Counted from the first letter of the stretch, positions 7,852-26,816 are shown. The stretch is 28,882 nucleotides of DNA from Acidobacteriota bacterium (GCA_037386985.1 JARRLM010000001.1:2495-31376); one strand, 5' to 3'. The notes: generated from the letters alone by a model not told the origin. Numbers and translations are program-made.

Positions 7852-7928
7852 CCCTCAAAATGCCCCTGCTGTGTCCCGAACTGTGTCCGCGAGAAACTGA
7901 CCGTATCCAACTCCAGCCAACTGGAACC
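7852..7928 (+). repeat. 77-bp dispersed repeat copy 1 (integrase arm-type-site-like)
   Basis: 70/77 identical to 24668-24744 and 68/77 to 26740-26816; contains CTGTGYCC twice (12-bp period) and CCAACT twice (10-bp period). Confidence 0.9.
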
Positions 7929-8081
7929 AAAATAGAAGAGAAATTCGGAGAAAGCGAAAATCAGAACTTTTCGCAGCCGTCTTTTCAGCATAGGAAAATC
8001 ACTTGTCCGGTAATGCTGTTCAGGATTTGGGAATTGCCGAAGCTCCAATTAATGATCGGGCAAATTCAGCTTTTGATCGCC

Positions 8082-8114
8082 CGGAACCCGATCCTTGAGT
8101 TCTTCAAACCAGTT
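8082..8114 (-). pseudogene. Probable C-terminal tail of a Ser/Thr kinase with beta-propeller repeats (Acidobacteria type)
   Basis: [11 protein letters not shown] is fused in frame where CoA-transferase homology stops; matches my recollection of the NWFEELKxRVP terminus of that kinase family (not searched). Confidence 0.5.
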
Positions 8115-8123
8115 GTTGACAGA

Positions 8124-8639
8124 TTCCGTCACGATAAGGCTGACCCGCCTTACTGAGGTCAAAGGGAGAGTGCAACGCTTTACGATTTTCGGCTTGCCTT
8201 TCGCTGTGTGCGACATGGTGACAATAACGCGTTTGGCTCCGGTCACCAGATCCATAGCGCCGCCCATCCCCGGCAACAGCTTACCCGGAACCATCCAGTT
8301 TGCCAACCGGCCCTTTTAATCCACTTGCAGGCCGCCGAGAATGGTCAAGTCAAGATGGCTGCCGCGGATCATGCCGAAGGAAAGGCAGCTGTCAATACTG
8401 GCGGTCCCGGGAATGGCGCCGACGAAACCTCCGCCGGCATCGATGAGCGATGGTTCCTCCATGCCTGCTCCAGGCATCGGCGCCATGCCGATGATGCCGT
8501 TTTCCGATTGGAAATAGACGTCCATGCCGGGCGGCATATACCCGGGAATCAACGTAGGCAGGCCGATACCGAGATTTACCAGGTTCCCGTCCTTTAATTC
8601 GAGTGCCGCCCTCTCCGCAATCAGAGTCTTATCGTCCAT
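8124..8639 (-). pseudogene. 3-oxoacid CoA-transferase beta subunit (AtoA/ScoB-like), nonsense mutation and C-terminal truncation
   Basis: VNLGIGLP, catalytic [16 protein letters not shown] (in-frame TAA 8316-8318), GMGGAMDLV; homology ends at SLIVTE. Confidence 0.88.
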
Positions 8640-9060
8640 TGGTTTCGGCCCTCCCTATGATGTGATGAACGCAGACAAAGGGTGTTGCCACAGAGTCTGG
8701 CGGAATGCCCCCGAGCCCGAAACCGCCGGCGCGGATACGTTCCGCCAAAGTACCCTGCGGGCAAAGCTCCGCGTCCATTTCACTGGCGATTATCTGTCTC
8801 TGGGTTTCGGGGTTCAGCCCGATATGAGAGGCGATGAGCCGGCGAATCATTTTTGGCGCAACTAATTGTCCAATCCCGAAATTCGGCGTGCCGGTATCGC
8901 CGGTATCGTTGGAGATAATCGTGAGGTCCTTCCGGCCCTAGCGAACCATTTCGGCGATTATTCGATACGGTGATCCGACTCCGATGAATCCACCGATCAT
9001 GATCGAGGCTCCATCCGGAATCCTCTCTACCGCCTCGCTGCAACTGATGAATTTGTTCAT
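8629..9060 (-). pseudogene. 3-oxoacid CoA-transferase alpha subunit (AtoD/ScoA-like), nonsense mutation and internal deletion
   Basis: ATG 9058-9060; DGASIMIGGF...[14 protein letters not shown] (TAG 8938-8940); [13 protein letters not shown] runs straight into the terminal IPPDSVATP segment, so about 100 aa appear to be missing. Confidence 0.85.
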
Positions 9061-9075
9061 TTGCCTTGCACCTCG

Positions 9076-10011
9076 TTAGAACTGGACCGCTCCCGCGCCC
9101 TTTAGACCCAGTATCTGTCGCATATCCTCCGGTGTAGCGATATCCCGGCCGAACTCGCGCGCGAGTCGCACGATCTTTTCGACAAGTTGCGCGTTTGTGC
9201 AGAGCTTCCTTCTGCCGATAAAAATATTGTCTTCCAGGCCTACCCGCACATGTCCCCCCATCATGATGGCCACAGCGGCAAGGTTAATTTCGGCGGGATA
9301 GCCAACCCCGATGACCGACCATTTATAATTCTCGCTGCCGAAAAGCCGGTCAGCGGTTTGCTTCATCACAATCAGGTCTTCAATGGTCGCAGCCAGTCCG
9401 CCCAGGACTCCCAAGACGAACTGAATCCACAAGGGAGGCTTCGCAAGGCCGTTTTTCAGCAAGAACCGCAGATTATATAGATGACCCACATCATAAGCTT
9501 CGAATTCGGGACGCACGTCGTTCTCGGCAAAAGTGCTGGAATAGATTTCCATATCGCCGAATGTGTTTCGAAAGATGAAATCTTTGGTGCCCTCGGCGTA
9601 GGCCTGTTCCCAATCATACTTGTAATCCTCGGCTTTGAATCTCCTGGCCACCGGGTGAATGGAAAAATTGATGCTGCCAAGGTTGAAAGAAGCCAACTCG
9701 GGACGATAGCGCGGAATCACGCGCAGCCTGTCCTGAGGGGACATGCCCATGCCTCCCCCTGTTGTTATACCGATAACAACGTCGCTGCCGGCCTTGATTC
9801 CCTTCAGAACCGGCTCGAAGAGATCGGGATCGGAAAGCGGGCGGCCGTTCACCGGATCGCGCGCATGGACGTGAACGGCCGTAGCGCCGGCATGGCCGCA
9901 ATCAATCGCGTCCGCAATGAGGTGTTCCGGCGTAAAAGGCAAGTGAGGCGTTTGGGTTGGAATGGTGATCGCGCCGGTAAGCGCGGATGTGATAATCAAC
10001 TTGTCGGCCAT
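9076..10011 (-). CDS. Beta-keto acid cleavage enzyme (BKACE / DUF849, 3-keto-5-aminohexanoate cleavage family)
   Basis: IITSALTGA, VHVHARDP (Zn His pair), ASFNLGS, KPPLWIQFVLG, GHVRVGLEDN. Confidence 0.93.
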   Translation of the reverse strand: MADKLIITSALTGAITIPTQTPHLPFTPEHLIADAIDCGHAGATAVHVHARDPVNGRPLSDPDLFEPVLKGIKAGSDVVIGITTGGGMGMSPQDRLRVIPRYRPELASFNLGSINFSIHPVARRFKAEDYKYDWEQAYAEGTKDFIFRNTFGDMEIYSSTFAENDVRPEFEAYDVGHLYNLRFLLKNGLAKPPLWIQFVLGVLGGLAATIEDLIVMKQTADRLFGSENYKWSVIGVGYPAEINLAAVAIMMGGHVRVGLEDNIFIGRRKLCTNAQLVEKIVRLAREFGRDIATPEDMRQILGLKGAGAVQF

Positions 10012-10083
10012 GGCTGCTCCCCTGATTCAGGCTGTTTGCCGGTTTATCGCTGTAGCTCTCTGACGGATCCTCAAGTTTTTCTA

Positions 10084-10464
10084 TTATTTCGCGCGCTTGG
10101 CGACGAAATCCTCGCTTCCATAGCTGCCGACCGTTCGGGAACCGCGAATCTCATCACCCGAAATTGTGCCCTTATACTCGCACCTGAGCTCCTGGCCCTG
10201 AACTTTCAGCGTTTCGACAAACGATATTTCATCACCTTTCACCGAGCCTTCCGTTAAAGCGGACTCGCTGGATTCGCTTTCCATGGACATCACGGCTGTT
10301 CCGGTGAGTTTCTCTCCCGCAACTTTAAAGTCGAAAGTGTAGTTCATCTCACCAATCGGGGTGTTGATGACGGCGGTCCATTTGCCGGAAATGTCGGCGG
10401 CAAAGGCCGGAACCGTGCAGAGAAGCGCAATAGACACAACCAGCAGAAATCTTAACCGTTTCAT
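10084..10464 (-). CDS. Secreted hypothetical protein (signal peptide, ADISGKW start, predicted beta-rich)
   Basis: MKRLRFLLVVSIALLCTVPAFA signal peptide; RBS AGGAG upstream. Confidence 0.8.
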   Translation of the reverse strand: MKRLRFLLVVSIALLCTVPAFAADISGKWTAVINTPIGEMNYTFDFKVAGEKLTGTAVMSMESESSESALTEGSVKGDEISFVETLKVQGQELRCEYKGTISGDEIRGSRTVGSYGSEDFVAKRAK

Positions 10465-10496
10465 TGTAGGATCTCCTTTTTTGGGTAAGCATTTTT

Positions 10497-10534
10497 AAAC
10501 CGCAATGTGGTATAAACATACCGTAATGCAATAT
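10497..10534. promoter_or_regulatory. Candidate tandem operator in the divergent promoter
   Basis: Two related imperfect palindromes, AAACCGCAATGTGGTAT (10497-10513) and ATACCGTAATGCAATAT (10518-10534), 21 bp apart; an IclR gene ends the operon. Confidence 0.3.
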
Positions 10535-10562
10535 CCATAATCAACCAAGAATGGAGGTCGGG

Positions 10563-10901
10563 ATGAAGAAGGTCACATTGCCGGAGGCGAAGCCCTATGC
10601 GCCGCCCAAACACTTCAATATGACCGCGTTGAGGCTTCAGGGAAAAGATGAGACCGGAACGCGGCAATTCTGGATGGGTCTTTCTCACTTCCTGCCGAAT
10701 GGAGGCGCGGAGATGGACGCGACCTCCATGGAAAAGCTTTATTTTGTGCTTGAGGGAGAGGTCACCGTCACTACTCAGGACAAGCAGACGTGCGTGCTGA
10801 AGGCTTGGGATTCGCTGTACGTCGGACCCAATGAGGCCAGGGCGATCGTCAACCATACCAACAGGCCCGCCAGCATGCTGGTGATCATCACATACCAATA
10901 A
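10563..10901 (+). CDS. Cupin domain protein
   Basis: EKLYFVLEGEV and GPNEARAIVN cupin motifs; GGAGG at 10553-10557 favours ATG 10563 over the track start 10551. Confidence 0.88.
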   Translation: MKKVTLPEAKPYAPPKHFNMTALRLQGKDETGTRQFWMGLSHFLPNGGAEMDATSMEKLYFVLEGEVTVTTQDKQTCVLKAWDSLYVGPNEARAIVNHTNRPASMLVIITYQ

Positions 10902-10933
10902 TCAGGAACGATCCTGCGAAAGGCGGTGAATCA

Positions 10934-11725
10934 ATGGAATCAAGCGTTGACCTGAACTACGTACAAAACATGTTTAGCATCAAAGATAAAGTGGCCGTCG
11001 TGACCGGCGGCGCCGGCGCCCTGGGGAAAGCCGTCGCGCTGGGTTTGGCGGTATATGGCGCCGACGTCGTGGTAACCGGCCGTACGATGAAGACGCTGGA
11101 ACCGGTGGTGAGAGACATTGAGGCGGTCGGCCGGAGAGCCCTGGCTCTGAGTTGCGATGTCGCAGTTGAAGAAGATGTCGCGAACATGGTGCGGGAAACT
11201 CTGAAGGGATTCGGCACTGTGGATATCCTCGTCACGGTCGCCGGAATAGCGAAACGTTTTCCCGCCGAGGAATTTCCCATCGCCGACTGGCAGCAGGTAA
11301 TGGACGTCAACGTTCGGGGAACATTCCTCTGCTGCAAGCATGTGGCGAAAATTTTCAAGGAAAAGAAAAAGGGAAAAATCGTCACTATCTCATCTGTACG
11401 CGCCTTTGCCGGTCATCCGAGCGGGTACGCCGCCTACGGAACCAGCAAAGGCGCGGTGAATCTCCTGACCAAGCAGCTGGCGACCGAATGGGCGAAGTAC
11501 AACATCAACGTCAACTCGATTGCTCCCTGTATTTTCTGGACGCCGCTGACCCAGGAGGTTTTGGAAAACGAGCAGATGTACAAAGTTTTCATGTCCAGGA
11601 TTCCCATGGGCCGAGCGGCGCTGACTCAGGATTCGGTTGGGGCTGCCGTTTATCTCTCTTCTCCCGCCTCGGATTTTGTTACCGGGCAAATCCTTTACGT
11701 GGACGGCGGCACGGTCGCCGGATAA
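10934..11725 (+). CDS. SDR family NAD(P)-dependent oxidoreductase (gluconate 5-dehydrogenase/KduD-like)
   Basis: TGGAGALG, DVNVRG, catalytic YGTSK, VTGQILYVDGG. Confidence 0.93.
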   Translation: MESSVDLNYVQNMFSIKDKVAVVTGGAGALGKAVALGLAVYGADVVVTGRTMKTLEPVVRDIEAVGRRALALSCDVAVEEDVANMVRETLKGFGTVDILVTVAGIAKRFPAEEFPIADWQQVMDVNVRGTFLCCKHVAKIFKEKKKGKIVTISSVRAFAGHPSGYAAYGTSKGAVNLLTKQLATEWAKYNINVNSIAPCIFWTPLTQEVLENEQMYKVFMSRIPMGRAALTQDSVGAAVYLSSPASDFVTGQILYVDGGTVAG

Positions 11726-11747
11726 AGAATAAATTGGAGATTCTGAA

Positions 11748-12551
11748 ATGAGCGACAATATGAAATTAGTGGACCTCAGTCACCCGTTCGGCCCCGGATG
11801 CCCTCTTTGGCCATACTTCGAGGATATCAAAGTCGAGCGAATGCACTATCATGCCAAATCAGGCGTACTTTCGCAGAAGATCACGACCGTGATGCACTGC
11901 ACGACGCATGCCGATTCTCCAGGCCACGTTGTCGAGGGCCTCAGATTTACCCATGAATTGCCGCTGGATCTTTACTATGGAACGGGCGTTGTCGTGGATA
12001 TTCCAAAGAAAAAATGGGAATTGATTACGGCCGAAGATCTGGAGAAGGCAACTCCCAGAATCGGGAAGGGTGACATAGTGATCGTACACACCGGCTGGAA
12101 CAGGTATTGGGGAGATAACAAGCAGTATTTCTGCTACTCTCCCGGTCTTGGACGCGAAGCCGGAGAGTGGTTTGTAGCAAAGGGCGTAAAAGCTGTAGGG
12201 GTGGACCAGCAGGCATTGGATCATCCTCTCCATACTGCGATCGGTCCGCATGGTCCCGGTCCCATCAATCCTTCCCTTTGTGAGGAATATAAACAGCTGA
12301 CGGGTCGCGAGGTCCTGGAGGATTTCCCCGAATGGGAACCCTGTCACAACCTGCTCCTTAGAAACGGAATTATGGGATGGGAGAACGTGGGCGGCGATAT
12401 CGCCATGGTGGTCGGAAAACGGGTCACCATAATGGGGCTTCCGCTGCGATGGTATATGGGAGACGGATCCATCGTCCGGATGGCGGCCCTGATTGATGAG
12501 AAGGACATTAACCCCGTTCCTCCGAGAGTTTATAAATACGGAGTTGTATGA
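11748..12551 (+). CDS. Cyclase family metal-dependent hydrolase (kynurenine formamidase-like)
   Basis: VDLSHP, HCTTHADSPGH (HxGTHxDxPxH-like), GDIVIVHTGW, GWENVGG. Confidence 0.9.
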   Translation: MSDNMKLVDLSHPFGPGCPLWPYFEDIKVERMHYHAKSGVLSQKITTVMHCTTHADSPGHVVEGLRFTHELPLDLYYGTGVVVDIPKKKWELITAEDLEKATPRIGKGDIVIVHTGWNRYWGDNKQYFCYSPGLGREAGEWFVAKGVKAVGVDQQALDHPLHTAIGPHGPGPINPSLCEEYKQLTGREVLEDFPEWEPCHNLLLRNGIMGWENVGGDIAMVVGKRVTIMGLPLRWYMGDGSIVRMAALIDEKDINPVPPRVYKYGVV

Positions 12552-12569
12552 ATCCTGAGGTGTCGGAAC

Positions 12570-13505
12570 ATGGAAAAAATTGCGGTGATCGGCGCCGGTC
12601 TCATGGGGCACGGCATTGCGCAGGTTTTTTCGGTGAAAGGGCATGAGATTGCGATCCACGATCCTTTCCCGAATGCGTTGGCCAGTGTTCCGGAGCGAAT
12701 ACGTGCAAACCTGCGCAGCCTTGGCCTTGACGAATCGTCTGTTGAGAGAATATCCCTGCACAATACACTCAAAGACGCGGTAGAGAATGCCGACATTGTC
12801 TTTGAGGCTGCACCCGAGAATATTGCGATGAAACAGGGGATCTTCGAGCAAATGTCAACGATGACACATGCCGGTTGCATCCTGGCCAGCAATACGTCGG
12901 TCATCCCGATCGGAGAGATCGCCGCCAGGGCCGAGAATCCGGGCCGTGTCCTCGGCACGCACTGGTGGAATCCTCCATACCTGATTCCATTGGTGGAAGT
13001 CATCCAGGCGCCCTGTACCGAATTAGTCTCGATAGAAAGATGTATCGATCTGTTGCAGCGGGTTGGGAAAGTTGCCGTCCATGTCCAACGCGATGTGCCG
13101 GGTTTTGTCGGCAACCGTTTGCAGCACGCGCTCTGGAGAGAAGCAATCTCCATTGTAGCAGCTGGAATCTGCGATGCCGAAACGGTTGATCTCGTAGTCA
13201 AAAACAGTTTCGGAATGCGGTTGCCGGTGTTGGGACCGTTGGAGAATGCGGATCTGGTGGGCCTGGACTTGACTCTCGCGATTCACAATGTAATCCTTCG
13301 ACATCTTGAAGCTTCACCCGAACCCAGTCCCTTGTTGCAACGCTACACGAAAGAACAGCGCCTCGGGATGAAAACGGGCAAAGGCTTCTACAAATGGACA
13401 CCGGGGTCGGCGCAGCATGTCCGCGATCGGATGATTAGGCATTTGAGGAATGCAACACGCGAGGGAGAGTCGTTTAGTAATGGATCGCCTAAAAACAAAA
13501 CCTAA
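12570..13505 (+). CDS. 3-hydroxyacyl-CoA dehydrogenase family protein (could act on a free acid, as gulonate or carnitine dehydrogenases do)
   Basis: VIGAGLMGHG, EAAPEN, LASNTS, GTHWWNPP, GFVGNRLQ, DLVGLD, GMKTGKGFY. Confidence 0.92.
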   Translation: MEKIAVIGAGLMGHGIAQVFSVKGHEIAIHDPFPNALASVPERIRANLRSLGLDESSVERISLHNTLKDAVENADIVFEAAPENIAMKQGIFEQMSTMTHAGCILASNTSVIPIGEIAARAENPGRVLGTHWWNPPYLIPLVEVIQAPCTELVSIERCIDLLQRVGKVAVHVQRDVPGFVGNRLQHALWREAISIVAAGICDAETVDLVVKNSFGMRLPVLGPLENADLVGLDLTLAIHNVILRHLEASPEPSPLLQRYTKEQRLGMKTGKGFYKWTPGSAQHVRDRMIRHLRNATREGESFSNGSPKNKT

Positions 13506-14280
13506 GCCCCGAGACCGAAATGGGGTTCAGGTTATTGCTCGTGCTGCCGAAATCTTGCGGGCACTTGAAGGCAGCGATGGTATGCGCCTTGGCCAGCTTG
13601 CCGAAAGGGTTGGCTTGCCCAAGTCTACAGTGCAGCGGATCATCACTGCTCTTGATTCGGAAAATTTCGTAGTTTCGGCATCTCCCGGCGGGCGCTTGCG
13701 GTTGGGCCCGGCTTTGGTCAGGATTGCCCACTCCATACGCTTCCCGATCGCGGAAACTGCCCGGCCATATCTTCGGAAGCTTTCCGAAAAAACGGGTGAA
13801 ACCGTGGACCTCGCGTTACTGGATGGGGAAAAAGCGGTCTTTGTGGATCAAATCCCGGGATCGCAGCGCCTCCGGACGGTGTCCGCCATCGGGATTTCAT
13901 TTCCACTGCATTGTACGGCTAACGGGAAAGCGATGCTCGCCGTGATGGGCGCCGGGGAATTGAACCGGCTCAAAAAAAGTATTCGCCTGGATGCTTTTAC
14001 CAAGAAATCCATTCGATCCTGGAAAAAGCTTGAAGAGGAACTTCTCAGGATTCGCGAAACTGGGATCGCATACGACCGGGAGGAACACTCGATAGGGATC
14101 TCGGCCGTCGGAGCTGCGATCGTCGGCTTTGAAGGAGAAATTACCGCAATCACGATTCCGACACCAACGGTGAGATTTGCCAAGAAGGAGCCTGAATTAG
14201 TGCAGGCGCTTCAGCTATGCCGAGAGGCAATCAACAGAATCCTAGGCGATCACCGCCGCAAGAGTAGGTCGGCTATTTGA
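13480..14280 (+). CDS. IclR family transcriptional regulator
   Basis: N-terminal HTH (LAERVGLPKSTVQRII), PLHCTANGKA, GISAVGAAI; ATG 13480 follows GAGGGAGAG (track start 13450). Confidence 0.92.
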   Translation: MDRLKTKPKPRDRNGVQVIARAAEILRALEGSDGMRLGQLAERVGLPKSTVQRIITALDSENFVVSASPGGRLRLGPALVRIAHSIRFPIAETARPYLRKLSEKTGETVDLALLDGEKAVFVDQIPGSQRLRTVSAIGISFPLHCTANGKAMLAVMGAGELNRLKKSIRLDAFTKKSIRSWKKLEEELLRIRETGIAYDREEHSIGISAVGAAIVGFEGEITAITIPTPTVRFAKKEPELVQALQLCREAINRILGDHRRKSRSAI

Positions 14281-14393
14281 TCTCCATTGTTCGGGTTGAT
14301 CGCGGGGATCACCGTCGACGCCTATGGTGTTAACGAGCGGGGCCGCAACTATCAGGGAAGGGAGAATAATTTGCCATGCGGAGGGGAAAAACC

Positions 14394-14519
14394 ATGATGA
14401 CTCTGCGGCTTTTTCCCCGAAAATTCGAATCCTTGCCGGCCGCCACAGCCTGGTATCTGGCAGATCTTGGCGAGTCGCGGGGCAAACAGGAATTGTTCAC
14501 TCGCCAATTAGTGTTCTAG
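14394..14519 (+). pseudogene. N-terminal fragment of a Fic/DOC family protein
   Basis: RBS GGAGGGG; MMTLRLFPRKFESLPAATAWYLADLGESRGKQELFTRQ then stop; matches the LGExRGKQELF N-terminus of Fic proteins; no HPFxxGNGR motif follows. Confidence 0.65.
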
Positions 14520-14611
14520 TCATGGTTGTGCTTATCCGAACCCAAAGGGATAGCCGCTATTCCATAGAACAGAAAATATCGCGCTTATCCTGCCTATCCG
14601 CCTGAAAGGGA

Positions 14612-14638
14612 ATAATGGCCCAGAGTCTTGCCGATCAT
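14612..14638 (-). pseudogene. N-terminal fragment of a Ser/Thr protein kinase (MIGKTLGHY), separated from its RBS by the RIT element
   Basis: Minus strand ATG ATC GGC AAG ACT CTG GGC CAT TAT; joining to 19152-19172 through TCATGG gives GGGAGA-5nt-MSMIGKTLGHY. Confidence 0.55.
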
Positions 14639-14640
14639 GG

Positions 14641-14691
14641 TTATGTTCTCAGTTGAATTATGTTCTTAGTTTTTCTTCTTATGCTTCAGTA
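14641..14691 (+). repeat. Left end: terminal inverted repeat plus two sub-terminal copies
   Basis: TTATGTTCTCAGTTG 14641-14655; TTATGTTCTTAGTT from 14658; TTATGCTTCAGT from 14679. Confidence 0.8.
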
Positions 14692-14839
14692 TTTTAATCT
14701 ACTTTCCTGATTTTAAATCATAGATAAATAGTTTTTTCCTTTTTATTATCCCTGCTTTTAGTTCTTCGCCCCCATCTCCTATGCTTCTACAGCTTTTGTC
14801 AATGGTCCATACCAGGTCTGCAATCAGGGGGAGATTTTT

Positions 14840-15268
14840 ATGCCGAAGCGTAGGAAGTGCCCTTTTTGTCGCCGGCTGTTCATCCCGGATCTGCGGGTCA
14901 AGGAGCGACAAAAAACTTGTGGTCGGAGAGAGTGTCGCGGCGAGCAAAAACGCCAATTGGATGCGCGTTGGCGGTTGCAAAATCCAGACTACTTTCGGAA
15001 TTTATATCCACAACAAAAGCAGGCTTACGGTACCCGGGCCGAATACCGAAAACGCTACCGCAAGGATCATCCCGATTATGTCCAGCGTAACGCCGCTTTC
15101 GTCAAGAAATACCGGAGGCGCCGCAACGAGAAAGCGGCAAAAGATGTAAGTTCCACAAGTTGTGATCTGCGTCTAACTGTTTGGAAACAAACGGGTAAGG
15201 TTAAAATTACCCATGTAAGTCACACAAGTCGCGATATTCTTGTAACTCTTTGCGAAAATGCATCTTAG
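14840..15268 (+). CDS. Hypothetical basic protein with N-terminal CxxC-x16-CxxxxC cluster (putative Zn-binding)
   Basis: RBS GGGGGAGA; CPFC...CGRREC; Arg/Lys-rich middle; two repeat units at the C-terminus. Confidence 0.75.
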   Translation: MPKRRKCPFCRRLFIPDLRVKERQKTCGRRECRGEQKRQLDARWRLQNPDYFRNLYPQQKQAYGTRAEYRKRYRKDHPDYVQRNAAFVKKYRRRRNEKAAKDVSSTSCDLRLTVWKQTGKVKITHVSHTSRDILVTLCENAS

Positions 15269-15298
15269 CGGGAAATTACCCATGTAAGTTCCACAAGT
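15144..15298 (+). repeat. Three direct repeats with an exact 69-bp period, core ATGTAAGT(TC/CA)CACAAGT
   Basis: Cores at 15144-15160, 15213-15229 and 15282-15298; copies 2 and 3 share the extra prefix AAATTACCC. Confidence 0.9.
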
Positions 15299-15338
15299 TC
15301 AGATAGCATTCCCGGCCGCCGCCAAATATTCTCGCTGC

Positions 15339-18987: not shown

Positions 18988-19073
18988 ACCATCTTCCAGG
19001 AGCCGGGATCATTGCGTCATCAGCCCGATAATTATGTTCTGTGTTTTTTTACCCGAATCGCTTACTGCTTATT

Positions 19074-19086
19074 TATCAATCACTTA
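19074..19086 (+). promoter_or_regulatory. IHF consensus site inside the RIT right end
   Basis: TATCAATCACTTA matches WATCAANNNNTTR exactly; a one-mismatch counterpart lies at 14714-14726 on the minus strand. Confidence 0.5.
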
Positions 19087-19136
19087 ACAAAAACAACCAA
19101 AATCCTGATAACTCATAGCGAATTAGGGAGATACGG

Positions 19137-19151
19137 CAACTCAGAACATAA
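19137..19151 (-). repeat. Right terminal inverted repeat of the RIT element
   Basis: CAACTCAGAACATAA (reverse complement TTATGTTCTGAGTTG); an oppositely oriented TTATGTTCTG lies at 19032-19041. Confidence 0.8.
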
Positions 19152-19421
19152 TCATGGACATAAGCATCTCCCGGCTAATCTGGCTGTCATGCTTTTTGGT
19201 GATTCGTGGCGGCAATTATCAGGGATGAGGGGAATGGGAAAAGGGAAATTGCGGGTAAGCCGCTGCAGCGAAATCAAGTCACTTTTCCGGAATGGATGTC
19301 AGGATCTAGAAACGAAAATAGCCTAACAGCATGGTCAAGTTCCCAACGTCTTGTTGATCGATCTTATTTTGTTTGTCCTTGAAGATCTATCTTTCTCGTG
19401 AAGTCTTCCCAAACCTGATCG

Positions 19422-21134
19422 CTACCCGATTCTCGGCATGAGCAGGTATGAGTCATACTTACCGCCTGCGTGAATGATATGATTCCCTCTATTCCGGGTT
19501 ACCGGACCGGGCAGATTCATACCGCCGGGACCACCCTGCCTGAAGCGGGCCATTACATTGTGCCCGGCTATCACAAGCTCAAGTTTTTCACCGCTGTGCC
19601 ATCTCATGCCGATGGGACGGATATGAATATCCAGCGGAACTATCTCGCCGGGTTTGATTAACTCCTCAACATCATGAGCATGATACGGAAACCAGGGAGT
19701 CGGCTGTGAAGTATCCAATCGACGATGTGATGCCCGTAACCGGCCGTCCGGACCGGTAAAGCCGTAGCCTCCCGGCACATGCTTTCCGGAAGAATCCAGC
19801 TTGTGCACCAACGCAAAGATATCGGCATCCTCTGCATCATCGGTCTCTATCCACAGACGCAGACTGACATAGCCGCTGAATTCTGTATCTTCCTTGAATT
19901 CGATTGCAAACCTGACATCGCTCTGGCCGTCATCCGATTGATAGCTGATAGTTGATTCATTTTTTGCAGGCTCGGCATTAAGAGCATTACTGGATGGATC
20001 CAGATACAATTTCTCATAGCGGGTTCGGCCTAACGGCCATTCTCCCTCTGAACGGTTAACCGTGTCGGTTCCTCCGGGATCCAGAACAGAGAGACGCACT
20101 TTCGGAGTTTCTTCCCAGCCGCTTTTCTCTCCTTTCAAATAGTGATCAAAAAATCGCCGAAGGTCATCTGCGTATTCGTAATAGTCCGGCCACTCGCCGG
20201 TGTTGTGGACCCGAAGCCATCTATCTTTAGAAGAAATCCTCCGGAACGCATCAATCGTTTGATGTCCATTCCAGCTTGCCACTATATAGGCGGGAACGTT
20301 TATCTTCTCAAGCTCCGGAGCTTTGTCTTTCCAGTAGCCGTTCATCAACGGATACTTTTCGGCCATCACTGTCATGTCTTCGACCCGGTTCATGCCTATT
20401 TGTGTTCCGGTATTCAGGTTGTTGAAAGCCGTATCACAAATACCGCCTCTGCGGACATCACAGCGATAGAGATCGATGTGTCCTTCCCATGGAGCGATGG
20501 CCGCCAGGTGCGGAGGATTTTGTGCTGCAGCAAACCACTGTATGATCCCCAGCCAGGAATTTCCTGACAAGGCCACTCTTCCGTTACACCATTCCTGAAC
20601 AGCTGTCCACTCGATGAAGTCGTAACAATCTTCAGCCGACTTGGTTCCCCACATGTAGATATCACCTTCGGAATAGAAGGAACCACGGGCATCCACGTTA
20701 ATCACGGCATATCCGTGGTTGCACCAGTAGGCCGGATCGGGTCCCTCGAATTTCTGGAGACCGGAAACTGCACCAGGATCAACTCCCGGAGGTGCCGGCT
20801 GGGGAAGCGTTTTGCCATAAGGACTCCAGGCTAAGATCGCAGGTACCACCTCAGTACCAACAGGAAGGAAGATATCCGCATATAGGGTTGCCCCATCCCG
20901 CATCGGAACGCCGACATCCCTGTGCCGGGTAATATCGCAAGGTAACGTAATACCGTTCTCGATGATCGTTCTTCCCTTTTTGAGAACAGAAACACCGGGT
21001 TTAAACTCTATTTCAGAAGCGGTCTGTAATTCGATGCCACGGTTTTTCGTATCAAGCGGCTGTGCCTTGCGAAACGCGACCTCTATATTCTCTGAACCAA
21101 ACTGAATTGTTTCGTATGAAATTCCATCCGTCAT
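19422..21134 (-). CDS. CocE/NonD family hydrolase (alpha/beta fold, PepX-like C-domain)
   Basis: VPMRDGATLYADIFLP, GYAVINVDARG, GNSWLG nucleophile elbow, GRLRASHR. Confidence 0.92.
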   Translation of the reverse strand: MTDGISYETIQFGSENIEVAFRKAQPLDTKNRGIELQTASEIEFKPGVSVLKKGRTIIENGITLPCDITRHRDVGVPMRDGATLYADIFLPVGTEVVPAILAWSPYGKTLPQPAPPGVDPGAVSGLQKFEGPDPAYWCNHGYAVINVDARGSFYSEGDIYMWGTKSAEDCYDFIEWTAVQEWCNGRVALSGNSWLGIIQWFAAAQNPPHLAAIAPWEGHIDLYRCDVRRGGICDTAFNNLNTGTQIGMNRVEDMTVMAEKYPLMNGYWKDKAPELEKINVPAYIVASWNGHQTIDAFRRISSKDRWLRVHNTGEWPDYYEYADDLRRFFDHYLKGEKSGWEETPKVRLSVLDPGGTDTVNRSEGEWPLGRTRYEKLYLDPSSNALNAEPAKNESTISYQSDDGQSDVRFAIEFKEDTEFSGYVSLRLWIETDDAEDADIFALVHKLDSSGKHVPGGYGFTGPDGRLRASHRRLDTSQPTPWFPYHAHDVEELIKPGEIVPLDIHIRPIGMRWHSGEKLELVIAGHNVMARFRQGGPGGMNLPGPVTRNRGNHIIHAGGKYDSYLLMPRIG

Positions 21135-22582
21135 GTCACACTCACCTTTATATATTCTAGGGCACTTCTCGCCGCAATACGGCCGGTACCCAGGGCAAAT
21201 CCCATGGCGTTACCAGGTAAGATATTGGGATAGATATCTTTATACAGATTGCATATCATGTCCCCTCCGGCAGCGTACAGTCCCGGGATCACCGAAAGAT
21301 CAGGAGTAAGAACCTCGGTCCTGTGATTCACCCTTACTCCTTCCGGGGTTCCGGTGCTGCCCATACTCCTGGAGGCATAGAATTTCGGTCGTTTTACCGG
21401 CCTGAGATACCGGGCCTTCTTGTTGAAAAGCGTATCCCGGCCCGTTTCGCAGCATCTGTTGTATTCCCCGATGGTACTTTTCAGGCCTTCTTTATCAATC
21501 CCGGTCTTTTCGGTCAGTTCATCGATAGTCTCAGCTACGAATACCATAGGAGAACCTTTTTCAAGTATCTTTGCCACCTCAGCATCAAACTCCTCCCGGT
21601 TGACTGTTGCCGTGGGTGTTCCTGCCTGCGCGATACCAAAACCCATGGGGAATTCCAGTCCATTCTCAATGAAATAATCTTTCGTATCTTCATCATAGAT
21701 ACGAAACGCGCAGCGGTCTTTTTGAAGTGACAGGGCGTTGCCCCCAAAGGGAGTAGTAACGGCAACCTCCTCGTTTACAAACCTCTCGCCAAACAGGTTT
21801 ACCATCAGGTGCGGGTGACCAAAAGATGCCATCAACGGATTCATCAGGTTTTTGGCTGAAGCTTTGTGATCACCACCGAACGGCGGCGGCATGGTACCTT
21901 CGGTTGTTTCTGCTCCAACTTCCTTGGCCATGCTGATCCCTTCTCCCACCAGGCCCGGAATACCGAAGGGAGCCCGGTGATGGCCGCCAAAACCACCGGT
22001 AGCCAGAATGACAGCTTTACACTTTACCCGAACGGATTCACCTTCCCTGGTTTCGGCTTCAACCCCGATAATACGATTATTTTCCTTTACCAGCTTCTTG
22101 GCCGCAGTTTTCAGCAGTAACTGAACTCCAAGTTCTTTCGCTTTTTCTTCGAGTTTGCGCATCATGGTAGCAGCCCCGCCCAGGCCCGGCTGGGGAGGAT
22201 CCGGTTTGACTATATGAGCCGTATAGTACCCGCCCGGACCGTGAGATGTCAGATCGGTAAACTCCACTCCCATATCCTCAAACCATTCCATGGTCTCCGT
22301 GGACATATCGATTAGTGTTTTTATAAGCCGGGCATCCACCGACCATTGCATAAAATCCATGTATGCCCGGAAAGCTTCTTCTTTAGTCAGTGGATATTGC
22401 TTAATTTTCTGGAGCTTGCTTTCGACACAGAATAACTGGTTTGCCCTGAGAGCAGTACCTCCGGTGTGAGGGGCTTTTTCAATTGCGATTACGCCGGCAC
22501 CACCTTCTGCCGCCGTCACTGCTGCCGCCAGCCCGGCAGTCCCGGCAGACAGAACTGCTATATCGGATTGATACTGTTTCAT
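21131..22582 (-). CDS. FAD-dependent oxidoreductase (FAD_binding_2; fumarate reductase/3-ketosteroid dehydrogenase flavoprotein superfamily)
   Basis: SAGTAGLAAA, EKAPHTGG, VILATGGFG, GERFVNEE, IPGLYAAG, GFALGTGRIA; 4-bp overlaps with both neighbours. Confidence 0.9.
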   Translation of the reverse strand: MKQYQSDIAVLSAGTAGLAAAVTAAEGGAGVIAIEKAPHTGGTALRANQLFCVESKLQKIKQYPLTKEEAFRAYMDFMQWSVDARLIKTLIDMSTETMEWFEDMGVEFTDLTSHGPGGYYTAHIVKPDPPQPGLGGAATMMRKLEEKAKELGVQLLLKTAAKKLVKENNRIIGVEAETREGESVRVKCKAVILATGGFGGHHRAPFGIPGLVGEGISMAKEVGAETTEGTMPPPFGGDHKASAKNLMNPLMASFGHPHLMVNLFGERFVNEEVAVTTPFGGNALSLQKDRCAFRIYDEDTKDYFIENGLEFPMGFGIAQAGTPTATVNREEFDAEVAKILEKGSPMVFVAETIDELTEKTGIDKEGLKSTIGEYNRCCETGRDTLFNKKARYLRPVKRPKFYASRSMGSTGTPEGVRVNHRTEVLTPDLSVIPGLYAAGGDMICNLYKDIYPNILPGNAMGFALGTGRIAARSALEYIKVSVT

Positions 22583-23493
22583 TTCGATTTTCCTTTTTTC
22601 TCAGGTTTCAGGTATTTGCCGTAAGCTTTGTATTTCTCGATTTTTTTCTGGGTTTCCGGCATTTCAAGTTGCGGTCCTTCTTCGTCACGATGCCTCATGA
22701 TCCAGCCCAGATGGTGGCGTTGTTTTTCAGCAGAGAACCGTGGATTCCGGATATCGTCGGCGTTCCACTCCACCCGGTATGTACCACCTTCACTGGACAC
22801 CTTTCCATGTACCTGGCAGGTTGGGCAGGCTATATCCGGCAGGCCATTTTCGAGATAGAAAATATTACAGTGGCAGACCGGGCAGGAGATGGGAGAGTCA
22901 TCTCCCACATACGCAACTTCTTCGAATGGCAGGCTCATCGCCCTTACCAGGTTTCTACCGAGCTGCCGGCTTCTGTCTATTGCCCGTTCGTTATCGGGAG
23001 TCAGGGCAGCGCCCAGATCGGCACAATGATCTATCTGCACCTGGTCAACAATCGTTGAAAAGTGCTGAATCAACAGGTGAATGGTCGGTAAGCCGAGACT
23101 GGTCCAGCCATCGTACCCTGAACCTCCGACCGATATGGCAGCGGACAACTTCTTTCGTTCATGGACAATCGGGTTGCGCATGAAAAAGTGATTGATCTTC
23201 TCACTTGCGCAGAGCAATGAACCGGGCGCCCTGAGATGGTATACCGGAGCAGCCAATATCAAAGCTGACTCTCCAAGCATGATATTTTCAAAAAGCCAGT
23301 CCGTATCATCAAACGGGCATACCGGTTTGATGAAACATGCCCCGCAACTTTTGCAGGGCAGGATCTTTATATCCATAGCCCGAATAATCTCCGATTCTCC
23401 TCCTTCCTCTTCAGCAGCCATCAAAGCTGCTTTTAAAAAGGCCTCGCAGTTTCCATCTTTTCTCCCAAAAGACAAACCGGTTATTTTGCCCAT
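22579..23493 (-). CDS. Flavodoxin-fold FMN protein (iron-sulfur flavoprotein-like) with an extra C-terminal CxxC...CxxC domain
   Basis: CKSCGACFIKPVC cluster, AAPVY, CPVCH and CPTC; RBS AAGGAG. Confidence 0.85.
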   Translation of the reverse strand: MGKITGLSFGRKDGNCEAFLKAALMAAEEEGGESEIIRAMDIKILPCKSCGACFIKPVCPFDDTDWLFENIMLGESALILAAPVYHLRAPGSLLCASEKINHFFMRNPIVHERKKLSAAISVGGSGYDGWTSLGLPTIHLLIQHFSTIVDQVQIDHCADLGAALTPDNERAIDRSRQLGRNLVRAMSLPFEEVAYVGDDSPISCPVCHCNIFYLENGLPDIACPTCQVHGKVSSEGGTYRVEWNADDIRNPRFSAEKQRHHLGWIMRHRDEEGPQLEMPETQKKIEKYKAYGKYLKPEKKGKSK

Positions 23494-23884
23494 GATTCTC
23501 CTTCTTGTCGGAACAATTGATCATCCGGAATCCTGATGGCAGCCTGAGGATAGGAAAAATTAGCGGCGGTTTTTTGTAGCGCCTATCCAACCAGATAGTC
23601 TTCAGCTTCTGATCAAAGGGATTATGTAAACTCTCTTGAATTTTCGACCGTGATTTAATCCCAGGCCCGCCTTTCCGAGTGCCTATAGTGCGAAATTGCC
23701 TGGGCAATCTCAGGCATGCTTTCCTCCAGATAGAGGTTGCCAGCACGCTACTTGTTTATATTCGGTGAATCCTGAGGCTATTATAGGCCGCTCATGTTGA
23801 TGTCGGAAGGCAAATCATGGGCTTCGTGTAACAACGATTTCTGACTGGACAGGTCACATGGAAGCAAACGCTGTATTTCGGTGT

Positions 23885-24090
23885 TCAGTCAACTACTTCT
23901 CGCTCGAAGATCAGATCGGCATAAGATGAAGCTCCATATCCACGGACAGCAGGCGCAGATGCCTAATCGAATCGCCAGCCATCTATAGCGAGAGTATTGA
24001 TTTGATCCTGGTGGATTCGTTGAAATTACCTGTGAATCCTCCACCCTTCAGTTTTACACGGACATACTTGTATTCGTATCTTTTAGCCAT
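23885..24090 (-). pseudogene. DUF4177-like small protein with a frameshift and a nonsense codon
   Basis: GGAGG RBS; MAKRYEYKYVRVKLKGGGFTG, then a shifted frame gives HQDQINTLAIDGWRFD*ASAPAVRGYGASSYADLIFEREVVD*. Confidence 0.7.
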
Positions 24091-24107
24091 TGTTACCTCC
24101 CATTTAA

Positions 24108-24398
24108 TGCGATTCTCGGATTCACTACAGGCACGAGGAATCGTACGAACCCGATTTTGTCGTTGAGACGAAGACAGAGAAGTTTCTCTGCGAACCCAAA
24201 CGGGCCACGGAAATGACAGATGAGGTTGTGTTAGCCAAAGCCGATGCGGCAGCGATCTGGTGCAAACACGCCACAGCGCATGCAAAAGAAAATGGTGCTA
24301 AGCCATGGAGATACCTGCTAATTCCACACGACCATATACAAGAACAAATGACGCTCGGTGGGTTGGCGGCTCGATACGAAGTGAATGCTGCGAACTGA
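24108..24398 (+). pseudogene. C-terminal fragment of a type III restriction (Res) endonuclease
   Basis: Frame open from 24108 with no start codon: YEPDFVVETKTEKFLCEPK (PD-(D/E)xK-like)...AKADAAAIWCKHA...KPWRYLLIPHD. Confidence 0.75.
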
Positions 24399-24427
24399 GC
24401 CGATGCTATCCGTCTGACCTGTTTTGA

Positions 24428-24488
24428 GCTGTGTCCCGTGCTGTGTCCGCGAGAACCTCGATCAATCTAACTCCAACCAACTCAGTCC
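24428..24488 (+). repeat. Partial, diverged copy of the 77-bp arm repeat (left of the tRNA-Phe core)
   Basis: 46/61 identical to positions 17-77 of copy 1, same orientation. Confidence 0.8.
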
Positions 24489-24526
24489 AACTTCCTGCCC
24501 CACGTCCCTCGCGGCTTGTGCTTATT

Positions 24527-24539
24527 TATCAATGGTTTG
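24527..24539 (+). promoter_or_regulatory. IHF consensus site in the att region
   Basis: TATCAATGGTTTG matches WATCAANNNNTTR; a weaker site CGTCAAGCACTTA lies at 24619-24631. Confidence 0.5.
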
Positions 24540-24557
24540 CGGCAGTACGTTACAGGC

Positions 24558-24602
24558 CTGAAAATCCGTGTGTCGACGGTTCAATTCCGCCCCCCGGCAC
24601 CA
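24558..24602 (+). tRNA. 3' fragment of tRNA-Phe(GAA), att core; not a complete tRNA
   Basis: CTGAAAA anticodon loop, TCCGT, GTGTC, T-arm GACGG-TTCAATT-CCGCC, ends GGCACCA; the 5' anticodon-stem strand, D-arm and acceptor strand are absent. Confidence 0.85.
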
Positions 24603-24667
24603 CTCCCAAAGCCTCTTCCGTCAAGCACTTACGCAGATTCTGCCGCTTCTCAGATAGCCCCGAAATA

Positions 24668-24744
24668 CCCTCAAAATACCCCTGCTGTGCCCAAAACTGT
24701 GCCCGCGAAAAACTCACCGTATCCAACTCCAGCCAACTGGAACC
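24668..24744 (+). repeat. 77-bp dispersed repeat copy 2 (right of the tRNA-Phe core)
   Basis: 70/77 identical to 7852-7928. Confidence 0.9.
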
Positions 24745-25081
24745 AAGATGGAGGGGAAATGGAGGGGAATCAGAAGAGGAACTTTCCGTTGGCACTAAAC
24801 AACATAATCCTGACCAGTGTGCATCCTGGTCTCCACGGGCAAGGAAAGTATCTCTCGGGATATAGCAGTTGACTGATAGAAAATATTTTACGAGGATAGC
24901 AATGAAGTGTGCCGGAACCTAAGAGCAAAGAAAAGATAAACGCTTAGATTCTTCCATCGGTGCATGTCAATTCGATCGGTCAAATTGGATTTTCCTAAAA
25001 ATGAATCTTGAATGAATAAGGCTCGGGAGACATGTAAAGCGATCCTTTGTTTTTGTCATTCAACTTGCCGAGGAAATATCA

Positions 25082-26665
25082 ATGGATCCTTTGTGGATAG
25101 CTGCAGCATTTGTTTTTGGAGCTATTTCCGGCAGAGTGGGATTGCCTCCGCTCGTGGGTTTTTTAATTGCTGGGTTCGTTCTCAAAGATTTCGATATAGA
25201 AGGAGGAGATTTCCTGGCTAGGGTTTCCGATATAGGTGTGACGCTGCTTCTTTTTACCATAGGACTTAAATTGAAATTGAAGAGTCTTGCCAAACCTGAA
25301 GTATGGGCAGGAGGCCCTTTACATATGCTGATCACAATTGTCGTTTTCGGGGGCGGTATCCTTATCCTTGGGATTTGGCAAGTTCCATACTTCAATCATC
25401 TGAGGTTGCAAAACTCTCTCTTGATTGCTTTTGCGTTAAGTTTTTCAAGCACCGTTTTCGCTGTCAAAATGCTTGAACAGAAGAAAGAAACGGCATCCAA
25501 ACATGGAGCGGTTGCCATAGGGATTCTGATTATGCAGGATGTGATTGCGGTCATCTTTCTTGCATTATCATCCGGTAAGATCCCGTCGCCATGGGCTGCA
25601 GCATTAGTTCCGGCACTGCTCATCCTAAAACCACTTGCGGGGAAATTTGTTCGTCAATGCGGTCATGGTGAAATGCTTATTCTGTTCGGTATTCTTATGA
25701 CGCTGGTCGGCTACAGGAGTTTTGAACTGGTTGGATTGAAAGGCGACCTCGGCGCTCTGATATTCGGGATGCTTCTGGCGTCGAATCCAGTGGCACACGA
25801 ACTGTCAGAAAGGTTGCTAGGTTTTAAGGACCTGCTCTTGGTAGGATTTTTCCTCAATATTGGTATGTCGGGATTGCCGACTCCGGCTGGATTTGCGGTT
25901 GCGCTAGGTCTGGCCGTAGTAATGTTACTGAAACCTATAATCTACTTTTTTGTCCTTACAAGGTTCAGACTGCGTGCCAGGACCTCGATGCTGGCATCCT
26001 TCGGCCTTGCCAATTACAGTGAGTTCGGTCTTATTGTCGGGACAATCAGTGTAAGCAAAGGTTGGTTGGGGACGGATTGGTTAATTATTATCGCTATTGC
26101 ACTGTCTTTGACATTTATAATGGCCGCACCTCTCAATGCGGCTGCACACCAAATGTATACCCGGCTTGCATCTAAATTGAAACGGTTTGAAACTACTAAA
26201 CGCCTTTTGGAAGATACACCGATTGATAGCGGAAATGCCCAAATTGTAATCATCGGTATGGGGAGAGTTGGCACAAGCACTTATGATGCAATACAGGAGC
26301 AACATGGAGACGTTGTTATGGGCATCGATTTTTCTCTCGACAACGTGAACGCGCAGCAGGCCCAAGGTAGAAATGTTGTATACGGGGATGCTGAGGACAG
26401 CGACTTTTGGGATCGCGTCGATCCGTCCAGGAGCCGGGTTCATGTTGTAATGCTTGCCCTTCCAGATGTCGAAGCCTCTGTATTTGCTATTCGACAGATG
26501 TACCAGAAAGGATATACAGGGCAAATTGCCGCATCCGTGCGGTACGAGGATGAAATACCCGTATTGCAAAAAGAGGGTGTTCATGCAACCTACAGTTTGT
26601 ATGAAGAAGCGGGTGCCGGATTTGCCGCACATGTACTTGCCAACCTGGATGTTGATATGCTTTGA
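25082..26665 (+). CDS. CPA2 cation:proton antiporter with C-terminal TrkA-N/KTN domain (KefB/KefC-like)
   Basis: GLPPLVGFLIAG, LFTIGLKL, FSSTVFAVK, GILIMQD, IGMGRVG Rossmann motif, YGDAED. Confidence 0.92.
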   Translation: MDPLWIAAAFVFGAISGRVGLPPLVGFLIAGFVLKDFDIEGGDFLARVSDIGVTLLLFTIGLKLKLKSLAKPEVWAGGPLHMLITIVVFGGGILILGIWQVPYFNHLRLQNSLLIAFALSFSSTVFAVKMLEQKKETASKHGAVAIGILIMQDVIAVIFLALSSGKIPSPWAAALVPALLILKPLAGKFVRQCGHGEMLILFGILMTLVGYRSFELVGLKGDLGALIFGMLLASNPVAHELSERLLGFKDLLLVGFFLNIGMSGLPTPAGFAVALGLAVVMLLKPIIYFFVLTRFRLRARTSMLASFGLANYSEFGLIVGTISVSKGWLGTDWLIIIAIALSLTFIMAAPLNAAAHQMYTRLASKLKRFETTKRLLEDTPIDSGNAQIVIIGMGRVGTSTYDAIQEQHGDVVMGIDFSLDNVNAQQAQGRNVVYGDAEDSDFWDRVDPSRSRVHVVMLALPDVEASVFAIRQMYQKGYTGQIAASVRYEDEIPVLQKEGVHATYSLYEEAGAGFAAHVLANLDVDML

Positions 26666-26739
26666 CTTTCTTTCCAGTTTGAGAAAAGATCAACAAGGAT
26701 TTGCGGGCATCTCACCACCTTCCCCGACAACCGTAAACT

Positions 26740-26816
26740 CCCTCAAAATGCCCCTGCTGTGCCCAAAATTGTGTCCGCGAGAATCCAAGCGTATCCAACT
26801 CCAGCCAACTGGAGCC
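26740..26816 (+). repeat. 77-bp dispersed repeat copy 3
   Basis: 68/77 identical to 7852-7928; no tRNA core recognisable upstream. Confidence 0.9.

Follow-up and report, generated by a model that had tools for sequence, protein, structure and literature searches.

Which process leaves four copies of one short sequence, all in the same orientation, next to broken genes and a tRNA fragment? The question arose from a stretch of 28,882 nt (hereafter the window, meaning this whole stretch) that corresponds to positions 2495-31376 of contig C1 in a metagenome-assembled genome (MAG) of an Acidobacteriota bacterium (GCA_037386985.1, JARRLM010000001.1; genome G000, 3.7 Mb). Our results suggest that these repeats are probably the conserved arm module of attachment (att) sites, and that they mark the seams of integrase-less islands, comparable to cis-mobilisable elements (CIMEs), that accreted in tandem in tRNA genes. 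The analysis covered the window's own genome, 29 genomes of the same genus, genomes of other families of the class, and metagenome contigs with the module, which were gathered by a pattern scan.

Four copies of a conserved module

Repeat and profile searches located four copies in the window, all on the plus strand: copy 1 at 7849-7944 (96 nt), copy 2 at 24428-24482 (55 nt, model columns 39-93), copy 3 at 24665-24760 (the full 96 nt) and copy 4 at 26737-26832. Identities in the repeat search were 88% (24665), 80% (24428) and 77% (26737), and chance was excluded by the profile E-values, which ranged from 7e-38 to 3e-06. An earlier description made from the DNA alone (the sequence-only reading) had placed four same-orientation copies of a 77-bp module at 7852, 24428, 24668 and 26740. 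These positions agree with ours within 3 nt and the repeat is real, but the conserved unit proved longer, about 210 bp including a module of about 95 nt, a spacer and a tRNA half.

The word CTGTGYCC occurred eight times in the window (1.3 expected), and seven of these occurrences, all on the plus strand, fell inside copies. Two CTGTGYCC and two CCAACT words had been attributed to each copy, which was mostly correct. The CCAACT pair, with a 10-bp spacing, was found in copies 1, 3 and 4 but is degenerate in the partial copy 2, which contains two CTGTGTCC units plus CCAACT-like units; copy 4 displayed a single exact CTGTGYCC, its second unit being TTGTGTCC.

The genomic contexts had been rightly described as truncated genes, a tRNA-Phe fragment and convergent genes. 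Copy 1 is flanked by a stop-interrupted methyltransferase gene and by broken CoA-transferase pieces, and an unrelated repeat (7687-7845) has taken the place of its left side, with the switch at ~7845. A 45-nt tRNA-Phe 3' fragment separates copies 2 and 3. Copy 4 lies between convergent Na+/H+ exchanger and fatty-acid hydroxylase genes and abuts the exchanger stop codon (26665). Flank alignments confirmed that copies 1 and 4 are without a tRNA core, both being left-truncated units: copy 1 is of the type found downstream of tRNA fragments (P'-type, see below), and copy 4 lost the tRNA fragment while retaining, from ~26690, part of a Leu-type spacer (26690-26832 in total, plus strand).

An attP-like junction around a tRNA fragment

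The tRNA-Phe(GAA) 3' fragment between copies 2 and 3 (24558-24602, plus strand) comprises tRNA positions 32-76 and is identical to the resident gene on contig C617; it is presumed to be the crossover or identity block, of the anticodon-loop class. By convention, short copies upstream of a tRNA fragment are named P-arm copies and full copies downstream P'-arm copies. Here, the P'-arm spacer (24603-24664, plus strand), conserved between Phe- and Leu-type units, displays a motif close to that of the integration host factor (IHF), GTCAAGCACTTA, at 24620-24631. On the other side of the core, the IHF-consensus motif TATCAATGGTTTG (24527-24539, plus strand) is part of a conserved block (TATCAATRGTTTRCGG) that five of the six P-arm junctions share. 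The IHF consensus WATCAANNNNTTR was matched twice in the whole window (1.2 expected), and the P' side is only near-consensus. The segment 24428-24760 is an attP-like junction, with arms on either side of a core. The same layout is also expected for the hybrid junction formed when a second element enters the rebuilt tRNA gene of a resident one.

Alignment of the copies with their flanks showed that full copies stand 45-60 nt downstream of the tRNA 3' end. The recurring unit of ~210 bp consists of the 3' half of a tRNA, from the anticodon loop onward, then a spacer of ~55 nt and the module of ~95 nt; the starts of the tRNA fragments range from tRNA positions 26 to 36, within the anticodon stem-loop. 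ARAGORN found no intact tRNA on any contig of the own genome bearing the module, and the tRNA-like ends on these contigs are therefore fragments. One of them (C175:387-434) corresponds to positions 29-76 of the same tRNA-Phe as on C617, and a degraded tRNA-Leu fragment separates the short and full module copies on C40. Contig C1 carries tRNA-Leu(UAA) fragments at both ends, one at C1:26-82 and the other at 28839-28882 of the window (plus strand, positions 30-73, cut by the contig end). The variable arm of the former shows compensating differences with respect to the resident tRNA-Leu gene, and this fragment is thus imported DNA. About 115 nt upstream of the latter, at 28724-28737, lies a variant of the module 8-mer, GCTTTGTCCAAACT. 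The array is therefore mixed, a tRNA-Phe junction being located inside a contig bounded by tRNA-Leu fragments, and Phe fragments within Leu arrays were also observed in G015. The anticodon loops of tRNA-Phe and tRNA-Leu(UAA) are one base apart (CTGAAAATCC versus CTTAAAATCC), which may offer a simple reason for such mixtures. A 136-bp direct repeat (94% identity, copies 328 bp apart at C1:1506-1641 and 1834-1969) was also recorded left of the window, past the tRNA-Leu fragment that opens the contig.

Short copies and collapsed junctions

All short copies start at model column 39-43, and two kinds were distinguished. Those of the first kind end near column 93 and occur at six loci (window 24428, C40:24528, G029:C8:244940, L082, L072 and G053:73925), where the short copy is invariably followed by a tRNA-Phe or tRNA-Leu fragment, a spacer and a full copy. 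At these six loci, the tRNA fragment is accordingly flanked on either side by the 8-mer pair and by CCAACT-like units. Short copies of the second kind stand alone; they share the start column but, as P' copies do, extend at least to column 102. The copy at C233:6180 matched the P-arm copy of the window in its left part (22/22, versus 16/22 for the P' copy) and the P' copy in its right part (35/39, versus 21/39 for the P-arm copy). Likewise, L088, from an unrelated metagenome, was closer to the P-arm copy on the left (21/22 versus 17/22) and to the P' copy on the right (34/39 versus 22/39). Judging from these matches, both are chimeras that presumably formed when the two direct copies of a junction recombined and the ~240 bp between them were lost. 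Window copies 1 and 4 are units degraded in other ways.

These observations refine the proposal that the ends of at least three related islands had accumulated here. The view that related islands accumulated at a tRNA gene and left their seams here is largely supported by the tRNA linkage and the variable arrays, but the chimeric copies indicate that stand-alone copies are more likely to be collapsed junctions than independent ends.

Nature of the module

The module is a conserved non-coding DNA site. Tests of structure, coding capacity and conservation were run on 34 full copies, and conservation spanned all ~95 nt rather than short motifs alone. Across families of the class, module identity was still ~75%, with all flanking DNA unrelated. 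These distant families have kept two TGTGCC-type 8-mers 11-12 nt apart, then CGCG, then CCAACT-like units with a periodicity of ~10 nt; both copies of G060 displayed TGTAACC in both 8-mer units. The 8-mers 12 nt apart and the ~10-nt CCAACT-like units are predicted to be sites for the arm domain of an integrase and/or for a directionality factor, with putative bending sites between module and core. The sequence-only reading had also taken the short repeats for integrase or excisionase sites. Such a putative binding role would agree with their occurrence on either arm of the conserved attP-like junction and with their persistence in distant families.

Several other natures were considered and discarded. 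For a structured RNA or an attC-like hairpin site, RNAalifold gave an energy of 0 on both strands and no inverted repeat was found within the module; Rfam returned no match for the module or the tRNA fragment, whether at the gathering threshold or with E-values of up to 5 allowed. A small protein was suggested by a Cys-rich open reading frame of 28 codons in copy 1, but no frame was open in more than 20 of the 34 copies, codon periodicity was absent and indels were not multiples of three. Promoters and terminators were dismissed as well, the modules displaying neither a sigma-70-like promoter nor an intrinsic terminator and having no conserved gene downstream. Transposon ends were rejected for want of inverted copies, and a native tRNA flank because module-free genomes have unrelated DNA at that place. 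Finally, a dispersed repeat such as a repetitive extragenic palindrome (REP) or a miniature inverted-repeat transposable element (MITE) does not fit with copies that are tRNA-linked, confined to one strand per contig and largely gathered on four contigs.

Distribution in the own genome, in relatives and in metagenomes

A profile search of the own genome yielded ~19 copies: five on C1, five on C40, two on C175, two on C233 and single ones on five other contigs, always on one strand only per contig. A genome-wide scatter with no link to tRNA genes or synteny breaks was not seen, 14 of the ~19 copies being clustered on 81 kb of the 3.7 Mb. The intact tRNA-Phe gene is located on C617, and tRNA-Phe fragments were found on C1, C175 and C40. 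The DNA following the tRNA-Phe gene of C617 is unrelated to the module. Within C617:2483-3056, 45 nt separate this intact gene from the 3' end of a minus-strand tyrosine integrase gene, inside which the contig ends. Since a module-unrelated arm and then an integrase gene follow tRNA-Phe, the latest arrival at this site is a different, integrase-bearing element.

Among the same-genus genomes, 12 of 29 displayed the module and 17 gave no match; three other families of the class each contributed one further genome with the module. The unit follows an intact tRNA-Phe in G016, G018, G019, G029 and G033, an intact tRNA-Leu(UAA) in G015 and G053, and an intact tRNA-Arg(UCU) in G057. The module thus stands 45-60 nt past intact tRNA-Phe or tRNA-Leu(UAA) genes in relatives and recurs in variable arrays, which bears out the anticipated link of the copies to tRNA genes and synteny breaks; at one relative locus it was located 85 nt after a tRNA-Phe fragment. 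Further copies on the same strand run through arrays of variable cargo that reach 42 kb, as in G029:C8 with its seven copies. The genes 5' of tRNA-Phe are syntenic across same-genus genomes, whereas beyond the first module, on the 3' side, the genomes share no related sequence. Intact tRNA-Phe genes together with co-oriented fragments were found in G018:C16, G016:C36 and G029:C8. In G018, a cargo segment of 4.4 kb is bracketed by a repeat of ~184 nt that extends from tRNA position 28 to the CCAACT units and is identical save for a 1-nt indel, which indicates a recent event.

Three module-free genomes of the genus (G012, G014 and G024, 98-100% complete) carry after tRNA-Phe DNA that differs from one genome to the next and is unrelated to spacer and module. 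Spacer and module are therefore accessory, element-borne DNA. Two of these genomes, G012 and G024, carry tRNA-Phe fragments of other kinds, and tRNA-Phe is a hotspot used by several element families. The loose ends observed at 24551-24602 in metagenome contigs, where the tRNA-Phe half is joined to several other arms, fit such a hotspot. Fragments of the tRNA-Phe 3' end with other, unrelated arms were recorded at G012:C1:4132102-4132152, at 4303-4347 of L069 (G024:C95) and at G000:C40:1293-1341; they show at least two or three further island families at tRNA-Phe in the genus. Several of these unrelated arms share a TTACAGC-like word ~20 nt past the tRNA end.

Module loci were present on 25 metagenome contigs, seven of them with an intact tRNA-Phe, six with a tRNA-Phe fragment and one with a tRNA-Leu fragment. 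A scan of viral contigs revealed no copy of the module.

Absence of a linked integrase and nature of the cargo

The window had been said to contain no integrase cognate to the repeats, and this was confirmed: its only candidates are three tandem tyrosine recombinase genes resembling the recombinase-in-trio (RIT) elements (15683-16939, 16905-17975 and 17956-18987, within an element at 14634-19150), and none was found beside any copy elsewhere (~60 loci). The trio is an independent RIT insertion. Searches for tyrosine recombinases (PF00589) were carried out in 11 genomes and on the 25 metagenome contigs with the module. They gave no match on the array contigs of G029, G018, G016 and G019, none beside modules in G015, G022, G053 and G057, and none on the metagenome contigs. 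The exceptions in the eleven genomes were a gene ~3 kb from a short copy in G060, with no tRNA nearby, and one in G053, at a distance of 7.5 kb and located 5' of the tRNA. A parent integrative and conjugative element (ICE) or integrative and mobilisable element (IME) with an integrase for these att sites was not found in these searches, the integrase of C617 being associated with a module-unrelated arm.

The RIT element is polymorphic. In all four metagenome runs, a contig joins 14633 to 19151, with 4517 bp skipped and seven ambiguous letters, and the depth over the element was zero in run X1 and full in X2. The own genome carries two further RIT trios, on C421 and C484.

The cargo consists of toxin-antitoxin and defence genes (PIN, VapB, ParE, SIR2, DUF433), kinases, regulators, metabolic genes and one IS21. 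The 4.4-kb segment of G018 contains only SnoaL/DUF4440, OmpA-family and DUF433 genes, and segments of G029 are similar. The sole gene family recurring beside modules is that of Ser/Thr kinase paralogues, which are cargo. Immediately after the module, the cargo found most often was large Ser/Thr kinases with TPR or beta-propeller tails, usually convergent with the module and with kinase domains of ~42% identity; examples are found at 16730-19411 of L054 (G016:C36), 10191-12383 of L071, 4379-6625 of L082 and 6888-10845 of L050 (G029:C8). They were discarded as a linked component of the system, being different paralogues without a homologue in the window (tblastn with three module-adjacent kinases). 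A block common to G029 and C40 was likewise set aside, as it is the IS21.

Proposed origin of the array and alternatives

In the interpretation that we regard as probable, islands would insert into the anticodon loop of tRNA-Phe(GAA) and tRNA-Leu(UAA) genes of Acidobacteriota and, in another family, of tRNA-Arg(UCU) genes. Their attP-like site would consist of the short module, ~45-60 nt with an IHF-like site, the tRNA 3' half, the ~55-nt spacer with a second IHF-like site, and the full module. Integration would rebuild the tRNA gene, with spacer and full module landing directly behind it, and every later integration would displace the earlier island outward, leaving an attP-like junction between islands. 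Recombination between the two direct modules of such a junction would remove the tRNA fragment and yield a single chimeric module. The window would accordingly be a decaying array, with an intact junction at 24428-24760, degraded ones at 7849 and 26737, and tRNA-Leu fragments at both contig ends. With nothing but cargo on the segments, an integrase acting in trans would be required for their movement, as for CIMEs, and the islands may still be mobilisable in this way.

Several observations weigh against this scenario. No tyrosine recombinase stands next to any module at the ~60 loci, which include a 534-kb contig with the 42-kb array. The module stands behind each tRNA-Phe fragment of five relatives, in which no junction with the native flank (P-O-B') was seen. 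G019 and G033 display tRNA-Phe and one module without a distal fragment, so that these sites cannot be delimited as islands. Contigs from four marsh and sediment metagenomes, aligned to window positions 7001-27000, showed no excision or empty-site joint at the window modules, contigs being apt to drop rare forms. Concerted change of the two 8-mers was weak (3.28 versus 3.59 mismatches), and the copies are related. Finally, the own genome is 72% complete and split into 632 contigs, C617, C175, C1 and C40 being separate pieces. Two apparent joints in the metagenome contigs (7935 to 24697 and 24451 to 24720) were rejected as excision products; they are other module copies aligning piecewise.

A tentative and more novel reading, for which we see a limited chance, is a tRNA-anchored gene-capture platform in Acidobacteriota: a family of small cargo elements always devoid of an integrase gene would be serially inserted at tRNA-Phe, tRNA-Leu(UAA) or tRNA-Arg(UCU) by a recombinase encoded elsewhere in the cell, the two-arm module of ~95 nt serving as recognition platform. 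It would amount to an integron-like system on lambda-type att sites. Less plausible, and rather doubtful in our view, is that the module itself is the recombination site of cassette capture, attI- or attC-like without hairpins, with a crossover close to the left end of the first 8-mer, a recombinase encoded elsewhere and tRNA fragments as mere passengers. The common start of the short copies at column 39-43 could be read in this way, but this shared left boundary is also that of the P-arm copies, and junction collapse accounts for the chimeras. Cassettes would likewise agree with segments of 1-15 kb that carry cargo and no integrases, with the succession of tRNA, full copy, 1-5 kb and short copy in G029, L094, G057, G053 and C175, and with the identical repeat of G018 ending inside the module (~column 93); against them, the tRNA fragments consistently start in the anticodon stem-loop, the classical place of crossover, and the module is without the secondary structure that attC needs. 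As for tRNA-Phe fragments within tRNA-Leu arrays, which passengers might explain, the one-base difference between the two loops means that one integrase using both targets can explain them too.

The constant tRNA orientation, the fixed distance of 45-60 nt and the conservation of the entire module could also be understood if spacer and module were a host sequence tied to tRNA expression (a trailer RNA or regulatory site), of which islands carry a copy to restore the locus. Phage HP1 reportedly restores a tRNA operon upon insertion, and the single copies of G019 and G033, devoid of a second att site, would suit this view. We nevertheless hold it improbable: the sequence was not found in 17 of the 29 same-genus genomes, some of them 98-100% complete with unrelated DNA after tRNA-Phe, the same module stands behind three tRNA species, the partial copy upstream of the tRNA fragment at six junctions is needless for restoration, and neither RNAalifold (energy 0, both strands) nor Rfam (no match) points to an RNA. 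Slightly less credible still are inert scars, i.e. leftovers of old insertions without present function or mobility and alike by shared descent. Truncated copies 1 and 4 with their broken neighbour genes, the lack of a linked integrase and that of alternative joints in the metagenome contigs speak for them, but scars would hardly keep ~75% module identity across families of the class despite unrelated flanks, nor a junction layout conserved at six loci, and the near-perfect 184-nt repeat around 4.4 kb in G018 suggests a recent event. Very little speaks for a dispersed REP/MITE-like repeat or a transposon end, for instance of a Tn7-like element homing to tRNA genes, which we consider the least probable of all. 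Some ~19 copies per genome, units beginning with TGT and a fixed distance downstream of tRNA genes might recall such elements, yet inverted copies and terminal inverted repeats are absent, copies keep to one strand per contig and are clustered instead of scattered, the duplications are 45-nt tRNA halves and not short target-site duplications, and no transposase is linked save the one IS21 present as cargo.

Relation to known systems

Systems of this kind are known. What is new in the present one is a module conserved on two arms, together with an integrase that is consistently absent. Islander described islands in tRNA genes, including an anticodon-centred attP class among tyrosine-integrase att sites (PMC4383910). 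Its tandem arrays share with ours the restored split tRNA, the co-oriented 3' fragment displaced to the far end, the start in the anticodon loop and the stacking at one tRNA gene, but they are identified by one integrase per island (PMC4383910), whereas no island segment has one here. Our literature search found no described counterpart of a conserved ~95-nt arm on both sides of the core. CIMEs have kept attL and attR and lost their integration and transfer genes; in streptococci they occur in tandem with other elements at a tRNA 3' end and are thought to move by means of a neighbour's integrase (PMC5704250). The present islands, such as the 4.4-kb segment of G018, resemble them by their att-type flanks without integration or transfer genes and by their tandem position at a tRNA 3' end. 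However, CIMEs are decayed derivatives beside a recognisable ICE or IME, while the segments examined here are integrase-less at all ~60 loci in several families, and the parent element was not found.

In the genomic islands of Escherichia coli known as GI-pheV, conservation is limited to one gene, that of a P4-type integrase beside the tRNA, and the repeats consist of 19-23 bp from the tRNA 3' end (PMC11537424). Common features are the tRNA-Phe hotspot, modular and highly variable cargo, frequent loss of attR and frequent decay (PMC11537424). In our case, by contrast, a non-coding arm is conserved, the repeat comprises ~160 nt in addition to a 45-nt tRNA half, and no integrase is present. At the level of site architecture, the junction would resemble a lambda-type attP by IHF-like motifs ~20 nt off the core and by direct-repeat short motifs on both arms at 60-120 nt. 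In attP sites of that type, the arms carry integrase sites together with IHF and Xis sites. Here, however, arm similarity spans 55 nt and not 10-nt sites, and there is no adjacent cognate integrase or Xis gene. Integron cassette arrays and clusters of attC sites lacking integron-integrases (CALINs) are built on attC, an imperfect palindrome that folds as a single-strand hairpin. The arrays described here similarly display same-strand repeats resembling recombination sites between integrase-less cargo units, but they differ by the lack of an attC hairpin, by genes in either orientation, by units of up to 15 kb, and by their tRNA anchoring and tRNA fragments.

Acidobacteriota are among the most abundant bacteria of soils and sediments, and their gene exchange is little known. 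The repeat provides a simple sequence marker for widespread insertion hotspots behind tRNA-Phe, tRNA-Leu(UAA) and tRNA-Arg(UCU), where defence genes (SIR2, PIN/VapB, ParE), Ser/Thr kinases and catabolic clusters gather. With this marker, island borders can be recognised in fragmented MAGs for which Islander and other integrase-based tools return nothing. Should the islands still be moved in trans by a recombinase, they would show how integrase-less cargo spreads, and the 333-bp site (24428-24760) would be of use for integration tools in a phylum without genetic tools; if they are only scars, the array is ordinary genome archaeology.

Other features of the window

A cluster of genes for beta-keto-acid cleavage, a short-chain dehydrogenase/reductase, a cyclase, a 3-hydroxyacyl-CoA dehydrogenase and an IclR regulator (8335-14337) had a depth of about zero in the marine-sediment run X3, where 19007-23675 was present. 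In all four runs, contigs are interrupted at 8081/8082, to the left of which their sequences differ, and given both observations the cluster looks like a separate insertion. The methyltransferase gene next to copy 1 (7077-7660, minus strand) encodes a class-I S-adenosylmethionine-dependent enzyme with an LDLGCGTG motif; it displays an in-frame TAA ~40 codons past its start and is either a pseudogene or an assembly error. The unrelated repeat fused to copy 1 (7687-7845 in the window) belongs to a second family of ~150 nt with ~72-75% identity, also found at G000:C175:3819-3970 and G000:C40:23723-23855. It holds the palindrome TTAGG-N6-CCTAA, and on each of the three contigs it immediately precedes the start of a minus-strand gene.

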